Positions 12,601-63,125 of a DNA stretch of 64,000 nucleotides are shown here, piece after piece (positions within the stretch are counted from its first letter, which is position 1; each line of letters begins with the position of its first letter). The notes beneath the pieces were generated by a model. That model was not told the origin of the DNA, did no database searches, and was given only the letters and a program-made list of their open reading frames with translations. This DNA is from Guillardia theta CCMP2712. Its lineage: Eukaryota > Protista > Cryptophyta. The position numbers and the translations under genes are program-made. The stretch spans positions 62,001 to 126,000 of the forward strand of contig NW_005434663.1 in NCBI RefSeq assembly GCF_000315625.1, in the 5' to 3' direction.

Positions 12601-13077
12601 AAGATGTTGGCGATCAGGAAGCTCTGTGAACCGGGTAACCAATGCGAGGAGCAATCGTCAGCAGTCGCGCGCATGCCTTAGCTTCTGCTAGTCTTGAAAC
12701 CTCTCTCATGCATGATTGCTCCTTACATCAGACATAGCCACCACAGTACTCATAACTTGTCAGGAACCCAGCACAAGTATGAAGCTCCATTTAAGAGATG
12801 GCGATGTGGAAAAGAAGGAGCTCGAGTTGTCAAGGACAGAGGTTGATGAACGACCCGTGCAGGGAGCATACCAAGGTGCAAACTTGTAATTGGTGGAATA
12901 TAGATTTTGCATCTGAGACCCGTTTACGGCGGAGATAGCTCATCTAAGGAAGAATCACAAGATCACGACCGTAAGAGCTCTAGTCTCATTGAACCCTTCT
13001 TCATAGTACAAAGTTCAAGGTCTACAAGGTCTACAAGGAAACAAGTTATGAAAAGCTCTGGTCTACAAGGAAGCAAG

Positions 13078-15284
13078 TTAAGAAAAGCTTTGATGACTTT
13101 CAGTTGCTGGCAGGATTAGGCCTTCGAGCGAAAATTCTAGTCCTCCAACCGCCTGACGTGCGTCTCCCTCAGACAGAATCATCACGCTTTGAAACAACTC
13201 AATCCCAAGGCCTACCAAGCTCCCTCGTTGTTTATTCAGCTCTCTCTTGATGGATAAGGTTTGTTCATGCTGCCAACTTGTCGTATTTTCTCGAATGTCT
13301 TGGAGGACAAAGATGAGATTCGCTTTGCTGACATTGTTCAACACAGTAATGTTTGCCAGAATGTCGTACAAAGGTGTAAAAGACACAGAATGCTGCTTTG
13401 CCCTTGTTATCTGGAATAGATACAGTTCTCCTGGTGTCTCAGACAGCATCAAAGCATCCACGCAAGGGAAAGTCTTGGATGAAGGCTTGTAGTACGTTCT
13501 TTCTAGTAGACGGCGATTCAAGCTTTCAGGTCCTCCACAGAATTCCACATATTCACTTCTCATCATCTCAGTCTCAGTCACATGGCTTTGATCTTGCTCC
13601 TCCCCCAACCGCCTTACTTTTCGTTTCCCTCCTTTTCTGAGGATGAGGTGCGAGAGAAATTCAAACAGAACCCAATTTGAAAGTACTTGATCATCCTCCT
13701 CCCTGAAGGCAGCTTTGAAGGCCATGTCGCGATCCCTGTTCATCATGGACCTGGAAATTAAAACCTTTGCATATTCCGAGCAGATCTGAGCCTTCACAGA
13801 GTTGTACGTTGGGCTTGGAACAAGATGTACAACTTTCGAAGGGAGATCGAAGTCTTCATCGTACACAGATCTGACCTTGTCATCGAAATCCTTAACGTCA
13901 GTGATTTTCTTCACTTCCTGAATCAAACTGGAATTTGAATCCGTTAAAAGCATTCTGGGGATGTTTCCCCAAAGCTCGATAGTTCGATTGACTACCGCAT
14001 CGTCTAAGCGTGTCTTGTGCAGCTCTCGAAAGATAGCCATTTCCTCGTCGGTCCATACCGGCAAGAAGTACCGTTTGGCGGTGCCTTCTCTTAACGCTTG
14101 TTTGAAAATACGTTTCTTGGGAGAGGAGAAGATGACGTTCTTGGTGTATGTGCTATAAAAACAAGTTGACTCTGGGTGAAGGTCGCTGAGATACCAACCT
14201 CTGTGCTTGTACAAGATTGATTCGCGATTTTGTTCTCCATTTTTCACACGAAACCAAGAGTCTCCCTTGAAATGAAAGTGATCGTTTCCGCGTTGATAGT
14301 AGACGCTCTCCCGTGTCTGAAGTAGGTACAGAAGCAAATAAAACGCAAAACAAGACTTTCCAATCCCTGGGTTGCCCGTAATGAGGATTGAAGTGAAAGA
14401 TGTCCTGTTTTCTCTTGGTCTTAATGTTTCTCCGTCTAAACCGAAGTTGATCGCAATGATATCCTTGACTTCACGGTAGCACTTCCGTATCAAAAGCTCG
14501 TTTCCATCAAACACCTTTGTTCCTTTCGGCAAACGAACAGTCGTTTGATTGGCATTGATACTTCCAGAACAAGAAACATTCCACAGCCCCATAAGAAATT
14601 CAAGTTCGTCATCCCTTGCTGCTCAAAACAATTCATCACATAAAACCAAGCAAACTTCTTGACTGCTTACCTCCGTCGCTGGAAAAATACTGTGAGATTT
14701 CCTCATGCCGCATTGAATGCTTCTGAAGGTTGAGCTTAAGCTCTTGCAGCTCAGCTTTCTTTGCCGCCTCCTGCGCCCGGAGCTCGGTTTTCTCCTGCTC
14801 ATTGTTGCTCGCGATGATCCTCGCCTGAATATACTCTAGCTCGACTCTCACGCGCTCGATCTCAAGCTGGGCTTTCTCCTGCTCATTGTTGCTCGCGATG
14901 ATCTTCGCCTGAAGCTTCCCGAGTTCGACTCTCACGCGCTCGACCTCAAGCTGGGCTTTCTTCTGCTCATTGTTGTTTGCGATGACCCTCGCCTTTTGCT
15001 TTCGTTTGTCTGCACTGAGCTTCAATCGCCTCTTGTTGGAAAAACCTGCGAGTAGATCATCATCTATCATAGCTTACACTCGTAAAGTATTGCTCGCGAG
15101 TACCTTTCGACGGGCCACTACCACGGAGCTTTGCAAGTGGCGGCATCATGTTCGCTTGGCAGGTGAGGCAGGAAGCAAGACTGAAGTACAATCCTCTTGA
15201 TTCTGCAATCTCTGTGCCATGAGTAGCTGCTTGATGGACCCACAGCACGTGGCGCAGCAGCACCAGCCATAGCGCAGATGCCAT
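13078..15284 (-). CDS. Crinkler/RHS (CR)-type P-loop NTPase + PD-(D/E)xK-like REase protein with N-terminal leader and coiled-coil repeats (3 exons, 699 aa)
   Basis: Exons 15284-15104, 15045-14671 and 14621-13078 join in frame through GT-AG introns of 58 and 49 nt (2100 nt total). Walker A SILITGNPGIGKS; IFSSP; RYFLPVWTDEE; WGNIPR; LFEFLSH; C-terminal YYKPSSKTFPCVDAL...LFQITRAKQH typical of CR NTPase-REase modules. Confidence 0.8.
14780..14990 (-). repeat. 84-bp (28-aa) coding tandem repeat, ~2.5 copies
   Basis: VIANNNEQKKAQLEVERVRVELGKLQAK / IIASNNEQEKAQLEIERVRVELEYIQAR / IIASNNEQEKTEL. Confidence 0.9.
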
Positions 15285-16925
15285 GCCTGCGTCTACTGCT
15301 CTCCGACTCTATGAATTTACTCAATAATGGAAGGGTAGCCAGCAAAGTAGGCATATTTTAAGATCCTCTTCTCCTGCACCAGACTGGCCAGCTGCAACTC
15401 AGGTCTGAATTTCTGCATCATCATCGTCGACATCACAGAAGGCTGAAGACCACCAGCTGCCGCAAGTGCCGCAGCCGCTGCCCGGCCACCGCGGCCGCCG
15501 GCCGGGCCCGCGGCCGCCTCAGTCAAGCGGCAAGTTGCCAAGTCAAATAGCTCGCCCAGTTTCAAGTCTATTTCCGGGTTAGGGGCGGGAATGGCTGTGC
15601 AGAGTGTAATTGTAGACCATAACTTGATTTCATGGTAGGAATGGTTGAACGAAGAGTATCTGGAGAGAACGATCGTGTTATAAAGACAGTGCTTCCTTCC
15701 ATGCCTTGGTTCTGAGAAATCTCAGACAACCTCTTGTACTAAAACCTACGGATTGTGATGGATCACATTTTATTGTTTGTGTTCAACATGTATGCTGTAA
15801 GAAGACGCTCTCTTATTCCGCTTCTCCGCGATGCTCCAGAATGAAAAATTTTGGTCGCGAAACTAGTACTGGAGAATTTTGTCTAGAACTGGGGTGTAGT
15901 GTGGTTTTGATGATACGGAATGATGAATGATGAATGATGTACACCAATCAAGTCAGGAACAACTCGGTCTGCTTTAGTTGTTGACGCACTTTTGTGTGTA
16001 TATCTTTACCCTTTGAACGAGTTCAATTCGTTCTTTGCAAATAATCGGATCTGTTGTTCTAATAATAACCTTCCAGAGGAAGAGAAGATGTTTGCCTTGC
16101 TTCGGGCGAATGAGCAAGCAAATAATTCACACCCTCAAGCTCAGACACATCTCTTCTCCAGGTTGAAATGTTTTGAAATGCGTAAGAGGTATGTACTAAC
16201 ACAAGTCTTTCAGGGAGGAGATGCAATATTGCGACAAACACTGTGAGAAATATGTGAATCTGTGGGAAGCCAACAACCACAGTGAGAAACGTGAATAGCT
16301 TTCCGCGTCATTTGCTGACTTGTTCTGTAGTCTATGAAAATCCAGCGATCTATGAAAACCTCAATTTCAACCCTAACGCATGGTTTCATGAGCCGCAACC
16401 TTGATTCTTAAGACAAACCTTGACAAAGTTCATTTTCAACATTTGTGATAGACGACTGTAGACATGTAGTAAGGTGCTTGTTTGTTTTTGAGTGATATGT
16501 GCACACAACACTACAAGGTGGGATGAATAAAAAAGATAAATTGTGCAGCCGCAATGCCACAGCATCAAGCAAGCGGAATACATCCATGCTAATAAATGCA
16601 TTTCTGAAGCTAAATCCTTGCATGTGCCAAACACCAATCTACTGTACGTCACATTGCGAAAGGCTTGTGAGAGATCCTGCGAATATGCTTGTGGGCGATC
16701 TTGCTGAGATTCTTTTCGTTGTTTTTATTGAACATGTGAACATGTACAATCTATGTAGTAGGTAAAGGAGGATTTCGTACTGGACAGCCAGCACACGTTT
16801 GTTACCACTGGGTAAGTTGATAAGAGAACACAAGGAGAGTTACTTGGAAGAATTCAACCGATGGTTGACAGCTAGAATACAAACAATAATCAAGCTCCAC
16901 TTGAAAACGATAGCAAGGATCGACT

Positions 16926-34413: not shown

Positions 34414-35077
34414 GGCCGCCGTGAAATGTACAAAGCAGGCTCGCCTCAGCAACGAAATGTAGGAGGCGCTTCACAAGACGCTGGTAAACTTGTGACTCTA
34501 GCGGCGCCCTGCCGTCATCTAGCTAGCAACCATCCTTGATCCTGGGGTAGGGGTGAAAAAATGAGGTGTGATAAAGGATGGTGAGGGTGGGGGTAGTCCA
34601 TGTAAAGGACCAGGGCAGGAAACAGTCATTTCATAATCCTCCTTCTATGATTTTGCAACCTATACGAATGGTTGATGTCACAGCACGTATGCTTCAAATG
34701 ATAGCACGGATAGGAGATTCAGGGGTGGATATAAATTGGGGGTGGGGGTACCACAAATGGGAAGGGGTTGGGTAGTGGTCCACCCGTTCGAGGTGGGATG
34801 GCGTGCGAGGGAGCGATTAGAATGGAGCGTGTGAGGAGGAGAGAGAATGCTGAGAGAAGGAGTTGAAACACCGCAAGGTTCGTTCCGCATGCTCGCTCAT
34901 CTGTAGTAGACCAACCTCCTGAACAATACTTTCATGTAACAACAGAGATGCGGCTGAATCCATCTGATATAACCTTGCCGCACCTGGTCTATCTTTCACT
35001 GTAAAGCAAGCCTCGACTTTCATCCAGAGCTTCTCGGCAGTTCTTGTGTTGCTGCAACAACCAGACGAGCCTGGTCA

Positions 35078-38000
35078 ATGACTTCGCTTGGAGATGAAGA
35101 CAACGCTAGACGACCTCTGGTCGAAGGAGTAAAGGACAAGGAGAAATGCCCTGAAGCGTCAACCCTTCGGAGAGCAAGCAAGCAACAAGCACGGATGCTG
35201 TGCTCTTTGTTGCTCTCACTCTCTTTTCTCTTACCAGTACAAACTCAGCAACAGAGTGATGGGAGCCCAACAACACTTCTGGCAGGTCAACTCACTTGGT
35301 CCATAGATCCCTTGTTCTCGCAGGGTTCAAGAAATGTATATTTCAAGTTGACATTGTCCTACGTCTTCGATCCTCAGTGCAACCTGACGAGTCAAATGTG
35401 TATGAATGCAACCATGCCCTCTCTCGGAGCATTATGTACAGAGCAGTATGTTGACAAATCTTCGGGAGAGAACGGGGGAGGTCCTCCAAAACTGCAGCAG
35501 CAAGCAGAAACTTCCTGCTATTCCATCAGCACTCGTGATGGAAATGTTCGATACAACTTGAAGGCTGTGAATGGGATTCCTGTCTTGAACGTGTTGCTGC
35601 ATCATGAGGTCTTGGTAGACCAAAGTGTCTCAGGAGTCTTTGCCTACCTGTGTGTGCCCAACGGCACACTGCTTCGAACATGCAACGGAGATCGTTTGCC
35701 GTGTGCTCTAAATTCTACTCTACCCATACGCGGCGGATTCAAAGATTTTGGAGGCTTTTATGAGCCCTACTGGACTGGCTTCGAGTCGTATGTCAATGGA
35801 ACATGTACATCCTCAAGCATGCCTGCGTTTGAAACTTTCGTAAGCCTTTGCTCCTCTGCAGCAGCACAAGATAATTGTCAGGGACAGTACAGCGGTATTT
35901 CGAATTACTATTCTCCAGACCCCGCTGTATCTCCATTTGTTGAAGTATCTCAAAATCCTGTCTACAACATGACATACAACCTGACGTACAATAAGGAACA
36001 GAGATGGTACTTCCAATATCCAGCCCAAGAATTCTATAGAGCTTTTACTGGAAATGGATCGTACGTGGCCCCTTACCCTCCTTTCCATTTACAAGCATCA
36101 GATGAAGATGGAAACTTGATGGCATACTTTGATTATTCTTGGAGAGATAAGTTTCCAACCAGAGAGAGTAGTAATGTTCACGCCGAATGCTTCACAGGTA
36201 ATCTTGAGATGTGACAAAATGTTGTTTTTGATTGGAATTGAAGGAGATTACGTCGAAGGATACAGCTGGCCATTCGCCCATATATACCCAAAATTGGTTG
36301 AAGTTGGAGCCTGTAACTCTTTTTTTGATGGAGATGGAAGCGGGGGAAGGTAGCAGATATACACATGCTCTTGAATGTATCTTGACTTTTGATGCAGTCA
36401 ACTCAAGTTTGACTTCGACTTTGCTTTCTATGCTCCTCTGAATAACAGCACAACTTCCTGGTACAAGTTCCTGTGGCTAGATAATGGGCAGTCAGTCTCG
36501 AGATGCTCCAATGTAAGTCAGGACAATCAGTTCGCTTTCTGCAGTGGAAATCAAGTCTTCACACAGCACCTGGTCAGCACTCTAGACCTCCCCTTCTCCG
36601 ACGTAGACAATCTAGCAAATGAGGACATCGGTGGATCTAACTACGTAGCAAACAAGTCTCAGTGGTACTGGCAGGCCAGCAATGCTACCGGAAAGCTCAC
36701 ATATGTCCCTGCTGGATCCGTTGTTCGCAGCCTTTTCTCGGCATACGTGTGCTATCCAGGTCTGCAAAACCAGCCGCCCAAGTTCGTGAACCCAGTATAT
36801 GTGGATGGCCAATTCTTCAGTTCTTCTTCTCGGAAGTTCAGCAAACTTCCTGCTGATTATTTGCTACCGCCTGCAGAGACAGAAAAGCTTTGCTACGTGA
36901 ACAGCACCTGTACGCTGGAGCTGGTGGCGCAAGACTTCCTGGTGGGCTCAAGTCTTTGTGCAGATCCAGAATGTCAAAATTTTGATGATGTGTCCTTGTC
37001 GGAAGATGTTGTACAGATAGAATTAATCACTGAATGGACGAATTGGAGTGGAATTTCATTGAGTACTGCGCATTGTGAGAGCGACAGCAAACGACCATGT
37101 GTTTGGGATTCAGATTGCCTCCCAGGCGACCGCTGTACAGGATATCAGCCTGACTCTTCCATTCAGCCCTTCTACGGACACTGTTGCGATGCTAGCATGC
37201 CTTGTCTGAGTGGGGCTGAGCCAGGGACTTCTAGATGCATATTTGACTCCGACTGCCCACCCGCGCAGCAGTGCGTCAAGCCAAGATGTGAAAGCAATTC
37301 AAACCACAACATATCTGGCGCACTCAAATGCTACTACACAGAATTCTTCAGTGCGAGTGACGCAGGGAAAGTTGTTCAGCGCTGTTTCATAGCAAAAGAT
37401 CCCCATGGCGATAAGGTTTGGACTGGAACGCCTCCAGCACCAAGCTCGTTCTACCCCTACGTCATCACAGGGTTGTGCGACCCTCGTCTCAATCCCCAGA
37501 GAACCTGCAATGTCGCAGGGAGTGAGGTGGTCGAGACTGCAACGCCAAGCAACACTTGCTCGTCATATCCTGTATGTTTCAAGATTAGGATTGAGAGTAA
37601 TCCTCCGCAGTTTGTACATCCCACACCTCTAGAATCCAACTCTCTCGATGAGCAGGGAAATCCTATTCCCAATCAAACAGACGTCGCAGCTTGCGAGGGC
37701 TATCCCATCGATCTCATCATCAAGGCGGAGGATCCGGATGTTGGGAATAATGTGAGAATCTTCCTCCATGACTTCGAAATCGACACGTCTGTCGCCACAT
37801 CTCAGGACCTCCAGTGGATGCAAACAGTTGAGAATTCCTACAACTTCGACTTCTTTTCAAACAGAGCCACACCTCAATATCCACCCCAATGTTCTGGAAA
37901 TCCAGCAAATGACAGCTTTCATGGGTATGACGCCTACAAAGTTGGTGTGAACGCACAGCAAGAAAGCATTCTGCCATTGGATGGTTCAATAGTGAAATCT

Positions 38001-39656
38001 GTAGTGTCAGGATATGCGCAGAATGTTGAATACTCTCGAGCTCCAAACATATCGGTCCACTACACCTTGGAACCTTCCAAGAGGAATGGTATCATTCTGC
38101 GCCTTGCAAGTGCCACTTCCGACAACGAGCAAAATTGCAGAATTCTTTCCTCCTCTGGCGTCTCCTACAACGGCGTCAGCTGTCGGGAAAGCATCTTGAA
38201 CATGGATCAAGTCATCTGCGCCTACGCGTATGATGACTCTCGCTACCAGAGCAAGAGATGGGTCGGCAAAAGAAACCCAAACTCTCACAACATCCTCAAG
38301 AACTTGAGAGATCACAGTGATGGTGATATGAGTACCCGGCACTGCTGGAGAGTGGTTCTTCAAGCCCCGCCTCGCTTTGTTACAACCTGGAGTACCTACA
38401 GCTCTTCGATTTCTCCCACTTGTGACCTCAGCGCTTATGCAAACACTCTGATAAGAGACTCTGAAGTAGGAAAGATGCTCAAGGCCTACAATTACACGAT
38501 CTTTGATCTCAAATGTGTGGGTGTCGGCGAAGATTTCTCGTTTGAGTTTGTCGCTCAAGATCCTAACAGACAGGACTTGGTGCAGATCTTCATCCTAGAT
38601 GATCCAGGAATGCCTCCTGGAATGAGAGCCAGCCAGACCTACTGCGTGATAAGATCTCCAGAGACCAACAACCCGATGTGCGGAGCTACTCGGATAGGAG
38701 AGGACCTCATTAGACTGGATCAGAACAAATCATCTCGATGTAGCAAGGCCATGTTGAGACTCGCGTGGTCTCCATTTCGAGAACAATTGAACAGAACGTT
38801 CTTTGTGTGTGCACGAGCACAAGATTCGTCAACAGCTTGTGTGGGCAAGAACCGCGACGCTACTAGTCGTGGATGGTATGGAGAGACTGCATGCGTTGAA
38901 CTGGCGGTCGTGCCTCCTGTTCTATCTTGGCAAGGATACATGGTGGCACAACCCGACCAGATCGATGTGTTTGTTGGCTGTACAGTCACGCTCAGTATCA
39001 GTGCTTCTGCAGGTCAACACTATGTTGCTGACATTGGGTTTGTGACCAAATCCAACATCAAGTTCTCATTCTCGAGACCTGTCATCTCGAATGCAATCAC
39101 CTCTCGAGTCTTCGTATGGAGACCATCAATAGGTACAGAAGGGAGCGTGCATACAGTGTCATTCTACACCAATGATTCCATTGGTATCCGTGAGCCGCTA
39201 TGGAAGAACTTGGTGTTTTCTGTACAGAAGTGTCAATATTGCATTGGAAACGATATCTTGACCATGACTCATGGGTTGGAGTACACTGACTTGAATTTCA
39301 TCGCACGATATTTCAACTTGGAAATCAACTGGCTGCATATTTGGCTGTTGAATGGGAATAGAGATGCAAAGGGCGATCAAATCTTCAACGGGAATCCTAA
39401 CTACTTTCAGTTCAAGAGAATTCCTCAAGTCACCTTGAACGACTTCATCAGCAATGTGAACAACTCATTGATCTTGTGGTTGGCATCCAGATACAAGTAT
39501 CGCGCTCATGAGTCTCTTGCCACCATCGCTACTTCTCTAGGATCATCTTTGAAGACGCTGCTGAAACTCAACCCCGATGTTCAAAACCCCTACATTCCTC
39601 TCAATAACCAATCGTCAGTGCATTCGCCTTACGTCTGCGTGTTACCCTGTACCTAA
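35078..39656 (+). CDS. Large secreted Cys-rich protein with repeated PPxF...AxD (cadherin/Ig-like) modules and C-terminal LysM-like domains
   Basis: ORFs 35078..36214 and 36747..39656 linked by short-intron exons; hydrophobic segment MLCSLLLSLSFLLPVQTQ; C-terminal YKYRAHESLATIATSLGSSLKTLLKLNPDV...VCVLPC (LysM-like). Confidence 0.7.
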
Positions 39657-61885: not shown

Positions 61886-62831
<946 letters not shown>

Positions 62832-63125
62832 GGGGCAGAGAGGCAACACCGACAACCAGCTAGTCAACGAGAGCAACGGAGACAGAACGGAGAAAGATAA
62901 TGAGACTAATGGAAGAGGAAAGAAGGGAAGAGGCGGGACGAAGGGAGGCGATGCAAGGGAAGAGGAGAGAGAAACGAGAAGATGAGACAAGGGGAGAGAA
63001 GCTAGCAGAGTAGAGCGTCCAACTTTGAAGAGAAAGAGCGTGGTTCTGCTTCGCTAATCAAAGATACATTACGGTTCTAGGTACTCCAAGTGAGGGCCAG
63101 TCAGAGACAACACCGTTCCGAAGAA

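Follow-up and report, generated by a model that had tools for sequence, protein, structure and literature searches.

The DNA analyzed here is a 64,000-nucleotide stretch of Guillardia theta CCMP2712 (contig NW_005434663.1, positions 62,001 to 126,000; hereafter the window). Its minus strand carries, from an ATG at 15284 to a stop codon at 13078, a gene encoding a Crinkler/RHS-type (CR) protein of 698 amino acids (aa), in which a hydrophobic leader ending in an LRG motif precedes a coiled coil, a nucleoside triphosphatase (NTPase) and a restriction endonuclease (REase)-fold domain. The gene is real, transcribed and mis-annotated, and belongs to an expanded Guillardia/Hanusia clade; by its core the protein is a CR member, and not a canonical Crinkler (CRN) headed by a ubiquitin-like (Ubl) domain. 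The periplastid compartment (PPC) is the cytoplasm of a captured red alga, and the nucleomorph is the remnant nucleus of that alga. The leaders make it likely that the family is targeted to the PPC, and on balance this copy appears to be a PPC-targeted, probably nucleomorph-bound, predicted nuclease.

The leader and the periplastid motif

The predicted signal peptide spans residues 1 to approximately 20-23 (15216..15284, minus strand, as are all coordinates of this gene), with a core that is interrupted by Arg-His and a hydropathy of 1.87 in its best 11-residue window. With the cleavage site placed by the -3/-1 rule, the residue after each likely site (residues 20-24) is Ala or Thr, which is neither aromatic nor Leu; the leader with no Phe at +1 described in an earlier note on this sequence is present, with no aromatic residue near the site located by rule. 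A transit-peptide-like stretch follows (residues 24-56; 15117..15215), ending in LRGS (15117..15128), which differs by one residue from the LRGG that PPC proteins have at the leader end and from the [LIV]RGG found in seven paralogue records. A basic patch resembling a nuclear localization signal, K65-K78, lies downstream (14993..15034), and its function is predicted from the sequence. A non-aromatic residue at position +1 is the rule for PPC retention in cryptophytes (PMC4494062, PMC6105332); a plastid-stroma destination was rejected because there is no aromatic +1 residue.

The LRG motif was compared with the leaders of G. theta proteins of established location. LRGG was found at the leader end of all seven PPC proteins that have been validated with green fluorescent protein (GFP) and whose sequence is visible. 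Six are the GFP-tested G. theta entries of PMC12136025 (Appendices S2/S3: UGGT, EF-1alpha, 14-3-3, RRM1, CyP and Ubc8), in which the motif is at or near the leader end. The seventh is Nbp35 186667, localized to the PPC by GFP (PMC6105332), and here the motif is not in the host copy (Table S1 of the same paper). Appendix S2 was covered whole and Appendix S3 in parts 2-3 of 4, which contain all 15 G. theta PPC-matrix entries. [LV]RGG was present in 8 of these 15, and the seven without RGG, none of them GFP-tested, were entered as best BLAST hits (six) or as a listed example (one). Across the cryptophyte plastid set (PMC12136025 Appendix S9; part 1 of 5 plus a string count) ‘LRGG’ occurred three times, in at most 2 of 101 rows. 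Fisher p was 1e-9 (7/7 vs 2/101) or 4e-7 (8/15 vs 2/101), values that overstate certainty because the sets are small and hand-picked. These comparisons suggest that LRGG is a possible general mark of PPC leaders and a possible deubiquitinase cut site.

Two of the three plastid-set occurrences are in a single FBPase row, the G. theta protein XP_005839318.1, which has LRLRGG and no aromatic +1 residue and is probably a PPC isoform; a chlorophyll synthase-like row in the same set has VRGG near residue 90. RGG was also seen in the N-terminal parts of the Thalassiosira PPC candidates Der1-1, sSec14, sCdc48, sDTC and ptDUP, and of Phaeodactylum TPT4b. Within the window itself, a RibD-like deaminase gene (62433-63053, minus strand) provides a contrast: its leader is of the plastid type, with Phe after the signal peptide, and lacks LRGG.

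The ubiquitin-tail appearance of the motif was considered separately. A ubiquitin fold (approximately 76 aa) ahead of the RGG is excluded by size, since the whole leader is 56 aa and the spacer 33 aa, and the ubiquitin Pfam domain had no match in the exon frames or in the public protein model (P0185). Descent of the LRG from a Ubl header was likewise rejected, as the leader is too short for that fold and unrelated PPC proteins carry the motif too.

The motif recurs within the gene's own family. A quick tree was built from 39 cores, without bootstrap; in it, the 23 Guillardia/Hanusia-type rows formed one branch with a support of 100. N-termini were scored in 14 records extending beyond the core on its N-terminal side, with each locus or cluster represented once and with fragments, near-duplicates and records beginning at the core excluded. 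Within the first 100 aa, [LIV]RG[GS] was found in 8 of the 14: the gene described here, with LRGS, and 141049, P0186, 99775, 151813-15, 115015, 102953 and 107633, all with RGG. The motif is expected by chance approximately 0.008 times per 70 aa, and did not occur in 6,176 aa of mature parts. A hydrophobic stretch precedes the motif in seven of the eight (best 11-residue hydropathy 1.87-3.08, the six besides this gene being at 2.08-3.08), and seven of the eight have a short basic patch downstream of it; the record with the motif and no hydrophobic stretch, 107633, may be truncated. Motif-bearing records fall in both halves of the fully supported clade.

Identity to the leader of GUITHDRAFT_141049 was 14/23, 10/22 and 10/11 by segment, the last being residues 46-56 compared with P0001 of the same cluster. 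With the motif removed, the leaders of distant paralogues resembled this leader no better than shuffled sequences did, and the motif is therefore what is kept. The earlier note had suggested that the same leader might be found with swapped C-termini. This was not borne out, albeit by a weak test: all six leader-profile matches were members of this family or N-terminal fragments, and none joined the leader to another C-terminus. Searching the Atlas for the leader yielded nothing usable, and Pfam reported nothing for it either.

The earlier note had offered two destinations, the PPC or nucleomorph and secretion. The former is favored, because the LRG motif matches the leader-end LRGG of GFP-validated G. 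theta PPC proteins. Secretion would make the protein a toxin, released by default or routed through the endoplasmic reticulum (ER) and directed against parasites and grazing or competing organisms, and LRGG would then be the site at which a pro-peptide is cut off; this is distinctly unlikely. Several of the seven G. theta matrix entries without RGG look ER chaperone-like or trypsin-like (none is GFP-tested), suggesting that secretory proteins lack the motif, and the protein has no uptake or header domain. An ATP-dependent nuclease would also require a cytosol-like compartment. The case for a secreted toxin is that secreted proteins, too, have signal peptides with no aromatic residue at +1, that CR proteins are thought to serve conflict between organisms (PMC5289972), that the expansion and divergence of the family are toxin-like, and that UniProt has automatically named the N-terminal fragment of one paralogue ‘Secreted protein’.

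The NTPase-nuclease core

The C-terminal 514 aa constitute a CR module of NTPase, helix-turn-helix (HTH) and REase domains. This is the known architecture of CR proteins (PMC5289972, PMC11342252), for whose C-termini both papers refer to Zhang et al. 2016. At E<=0.001, a search with the last exon returned 984 representatives; the 150 best were inspected. Among these, the closest named relatives were proteins of G. theta and Hanusia phi, followed by a gap and then by other eukaryotic proteins. The Pfam Crinkler N-terminal domain was present in 5 of 29 scanned eukaryotic relatives beyond the gap (P0010, P0041, P0063, P0069 and P0132). Pairwise alignment with the Ubl-headed P0041 gave 27% identity over 440 aa (E 2e-33), spanning the NTPase, the helical region and the tail. 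The UniProt label ‘Crinkler (CRN) family protein’ is already on two G. theta paralogues.

Conservation was assessed in an alignment of 117 rows, picked from the matches for coverage. K273, D331, R407, E505, H509, D573, Q588, T590 and H595 are kept in 105-117 of the 117 rows, and all are intact here. The Walker A motif GNPGIGKS occupies residues 267-274 (14353..14376), with K273 kept in 113 rows, and a Walker B-like D331 (116 rows) lies downstream. In the REase-fold domain (13123..13725), E505 is kept in 114 rows, H509 in 112, D573 in 115, Q588 in 110, and T590 and H595 in 105 each. From residue conservation alone we infer a nuclease activity.

Structure prediction was consistent with this assignment. 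The model of the core had a pLDDT of 89.6, and its first half matched AAA+/STAND NTPases (Z ~9-10). The tail modeled alone had a pLDDT of 91.4; its top Foldseek rows were OkrAI, BamHI and MspJI, at a weak E of 0.025-0.035, and its best VIA row, also weak, was N.BspD6I (Z 6.2, root-mean-square deviation 5.0, 138 aligned). Approximately 30 of the 50 VIA rows were of the PD-(D/E)xK type, as judged from their titles. The Atlas neighbors of the tail were euglenozoan clusters (some RHSP) and oomycete clusters at 0.95-0.96. Foldseek with the whole 514-aa model returned AAA+/STAND proteins only, with no REase reported; Pfam gave only sub-threshold NTPase matches on the core and nothing for the REase domain, and a sequence search of the PDB gave no match with the single sequence and weak P-loop matches with a profile.

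The CR-type NTPase and REase core proposed by the earlier note thus stands on homology to Pfam-Crinkler proteins, conserved residues, weak REase fold matches and Atlas neighbors. The absence of the Ubl header is supported too: PF20147 (LxLFLAK/HVLVxxP) had no match in the three exon frames or in P0185. The accompanying statement that Crinklers normally carry such a header is true of oomycete and fungal CRNs, but not of CR proteins at large, which have many header types (PMC5289972).

The sister cluster containing 141049 (P0001, P0003 and P0020) has Arg in place of the conserved Gln of the REase domain, which is still Gln in its sister P0002. Segments appear to be combined in mosaic fashion in the same three sequences, pointing to gene conversion or a chimeric assembly. 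A scan of metagenome contigs with P0001 found no relative. Another alternative holds that the family is PPC-targeted but that this copy is a duplicate in decay, or else an expanded selfish element with a nuclease of little use to the cell. Its LRGS and weak hydrophobic core would fit this, as would the Gln-to-Arg change in the sister cluster, several fragmentary paralogue models, and the selfish spread of CR-like genes in free-living eukaryotes (PMC12957317). This is nevertheless very unlikely, given a 698-aa frame that is open and is spliced in four studies, the retention of every conserved core residue, and the lack of terminal repeats around the gene and of a second copy in the 64-kb window. 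An intact transposon was rejected, as no terminal repeats were found.

Transcripts, gene structure and neighborhood

Every feature named by the earlier note (leader, AKLRGSG, basic patch, 28-aa repeats, GNPGIGKS and FPCVDAL..FQIT) was in place on the minus strand. The splicing that joins them is not fixed by sequence, from which 240 two-intron GT-AG combinations keep the frame open. It was read instead from contigs of public sequencing runs, which are presumed to be RNA and whose contigs skip GT-AG introns. Intron 1 (58 nt; 15046..15103) was skipped in six of eight runs, from four studies (X1, X3, X4, X2, X5 and X8), and intron 2 (52 nt; 14619..14670) in three of the four runs that cover it, from three studies (X1, X3 and X4). 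Run X11 showed no joint, and approximately 6% of the raw reads of run X15 gave three matching reads, none at a splice joint. The earlier proposal that three open reading frames (ORFs) are spliced in frame was therefore upheld at both joints, as was its 58-nt intron; its 49-nt second intron was rejected, since the RNA-type contigs show 52 nt, and the product is 698 rather than 699 aa.

Exon 1 has its coding part at 15104..15284, with the start codon in a GGC-ATG-G context and the leader; it is supported by the runs and by the N-terminus of GUITHDRAFT_134323 (P0185), which is identical to that of this gene. Exon 2 (14671..15045), seen in the runs and the spliced sequence, encodes the basic patch and the coiled coil, including approximately 2.5 copies of an 84-nt (28-aa) coiled-coil-like repeat (14781..14994). 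Exon 3 (13078..14618) encodes the CR NTPase, the helical/HTH region and the REase-fold domain, and ends at the stop codon. The public model GUITHDRAFT_134323 misses intron 2, reads into it and stops at 196 aa. Neither the public model of this gene nor that of paralogue 141049 (P0018) reaches the core exon: each stops at or within the intron that precedes it, and the NTPase-nuclease part is therefore missing from those annotated proteins.

The contigs span 12977 to 15591, such that the ATG at 15284 is transcribed and joined to exon 2, although contigs cannot define the true start. The transcribed upstream region (15285..15591, reached by an X2 contig) is a possible 5' untranslated region (UTR) with upstream ATGs. 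Two minus-strand ORFs were noted ahead of the main ATG, one of 38 aa (15317-15433) and one of 78 aa (15118-15354), the latter overlapping the main start out of frame.

These upstream features, and an in-frame Met-Met at residues 46-47 (15149 and 15146) that is conserved in the closest paralogue, bear on a further alternative: the working protein may be leaderless, starting at Met46/47, or may fail to enter the ER, remaining cytosolic and reaching the host nucleus through its basic patch, like most CR proteins, to act there against viruses or mobile DNA. Targeting to both PPC and cytosol is a variant of this, with a precedent in G. theta tyrRS1 (PMC4494062). The weak hydrophobic core, the leaderless records (6 of the 14) and the nuclear location of characterized CRNs (PMC5289972) would all be accounted for. 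Such a protein is unlikely, for several reasons. The ATG at 15284 is in good context and is transcribed with approximately 300 nt upstream; residues 1-45 stay open and are identical at 24 of 45 positions in paralogue 141049; and the overlapping upstream ORF covers Met46 too. The Met-Met is also absent from five more distant motif-bearing paralogues, four of which have stronger hydrophobic cores.

The gene is located past the 5' end of a gene for a dynein heavy chain. Directly upstream is a small spliced plus-strand gene (15841-16522, with contigs possibly from ~15586), which has high contig depth and introns of 52 and 49 nt. The stop codon and the first part of the 3' UTR are spanned by a 32-nt tandem duplication (13028-13091). 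Elsewhere in the window, a long gene for a Cys-rich, apparently secreted protein is found on the plus strand (36393-39656 and 34973-36214).

Proposed role and known systems

The leader and its motif make PPC targeting likely for the family and, with less assurance, for this copy. Several observations weigh against this. The hydrophobic core of this copy is the weakest of the seven and is split by Arg-His, and no validated PPC protein examined carries LRGS. The Met-Met at 46-47, together with the upstream ATGs, could yield a leaderless protein, and 104239, 105614, 113517, 113520, 103492 and Transcript_17122 have neither motif nor hydrophobic stretch (<=1.27); these six of the 14 records may be truncated models or true cytosolic or nuclear forms. 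The PPC reference set is small, hand-picked and made up of visible sequences only, excluding four GFP-tested CIA proteins and tyrRS1. GFP signals of the blob-like kind may be misleading (PMC12136025), and an RGG at a comparable position in Toxoplasma PUBL is dispensable and is left uncleaved (PMC5487736). As to the nuclease, the active site reads D..QxT and not D..(D/E)xK, with Thr at the lysine position; the REase fold matches are each weak (best Z 6.2, best E 0.025); and the conserved Gln is Arg in the 141049 cluster.

A route to the PPC can be proposed nonetheless. Translation would begin at the ATG at 15284, and the signal peptide would direct the protein into the plastid-surrounding ER. 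With no aromatic residue after the cleavage site, the protein would then cross the second membrane and be retained in the PPC; both steps are predicted from the cryptophyte rule and the LRGG match. More speculatively, a deubiquitinase-like protease of the PPC might remove the leader after RGG, and the LRGS of this copy may be cut poorly or not at all. The basic patch would mediate import into the nucleomorph. By analogy with the CR family, the nuclease would be gated by the coiled coil and by NTPase-driven oligomerization, and the most likely target, at a guess, would be foreign DNA of viral or mobile-element origin within the endosymbiont compartment.

A wider proposal is possible but somewhat doubtful. 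An expanded Crinkler-type NTPase-nuclease family may have been re-addressed to the endosymbiont's cytoplasm and remnant nucleus, as a restriction-like guard or as a means of nucleomorph control, and its address may end in a mimic of the ubiquitin tail, LRGG, a general PPC mark cut by a PPC deubiquitinase that would be the missing processing peptidase.

CR proteins are known as pathogen effectors and as nuclear conflict proteins, and none was found described as targeted to an endosymbiotic compartment. If the proposal is true, a host-encoded nuclease family in the PPC bears on the defense, control or loss of the nucleomorph. PPC targeting has so far been defined mainly by a missing Phe, and its predictors are low in sensitivity (PMC12136025); a leader-end LRGG would be a positive, countable mark, and may matter as much as the nuclease, as it would allow a direct test of a deubiquitinase as the PPC transit-peptide peptidase.

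The literature searched contained no CR family with a PPC-type leader; Zhang 2016 and Curtis 2012 with its supplement lie outside that coverage and may mention G. theta CR genes. Nor was LRGG found there as a mark of PPC leaders, although two Gould 2006 papers were outside coverage; the Gould proteins show the motif plainly, and those papers may note it. The main texts of PMC6332867, PMC3774753, PMC4494062, PMC12136025 and PMC3017844 do not contain RGG, and neither do the supplements of PMC6411479 and PMC5443833; among the literature searched, RGG appears as a motif in the PUBL paper only (PMC5487736). CR genes in free-living eukaryotes are already known (PMC5289972, PMC12957317).

Compared with the CR NTPase-HTH-REase proteins, including the Crinkler P0010 of Diversispora epigaea (Glomeromycota) and P0041, the protein is collinear and homologous throughout the module and shares their conserved residues. 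It differs from them at the N-terminus, where a hydrophobic leader, a short spacer, LRG[GS], a basic patch and a coiled coil take the place of the Ubl header (PF20147). According to PMC5289972, CRNs have been found not to carry signal peptides, and a single header, from Angomonas, is hydrophobic. CR-derived proteins in the genomes of non-pathogens have parallels in the Medea1/CifB-type CR-related selfish nucleases and in AACRNL (PMC11342252, PMC12957317), and Medea1 has the same NTPase-REase pair (PMC11342252). Unlike those systems, no antidote gene, transposon ends or ADP-ribosyltransferase were found here.

The leader itself is closest to those of the G. theta PPC proteins with bipartite signals (UGGT, EF-1alpha, 14-3-3, RRM1, cyclophilin, Ubc8 and Nbp35; PMC12136025 Appendices S2/S3, PMC6105332), with which it shares a hydrophobic N-terminus, a non-aromatic +1 residue, a short spacer and an LRGG-type motif before the mature part. 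Those are GFP-tested housekeeping proteins, whereas this is a conflict-type NTPase-nuclease with LRGS and a predicted location. An RGG resembling the ubiquitin tail at a junction is also a feature of ubiquitin precursors and of Toxoplasma PUBL (PMC5487736, PMC6332867). The internal RGG of PUBL is uncut (PMC5487736), and, unlike in ubiquitin precursors, the 17-33 residues between signal and motif are too few for a ubiquitin fold.

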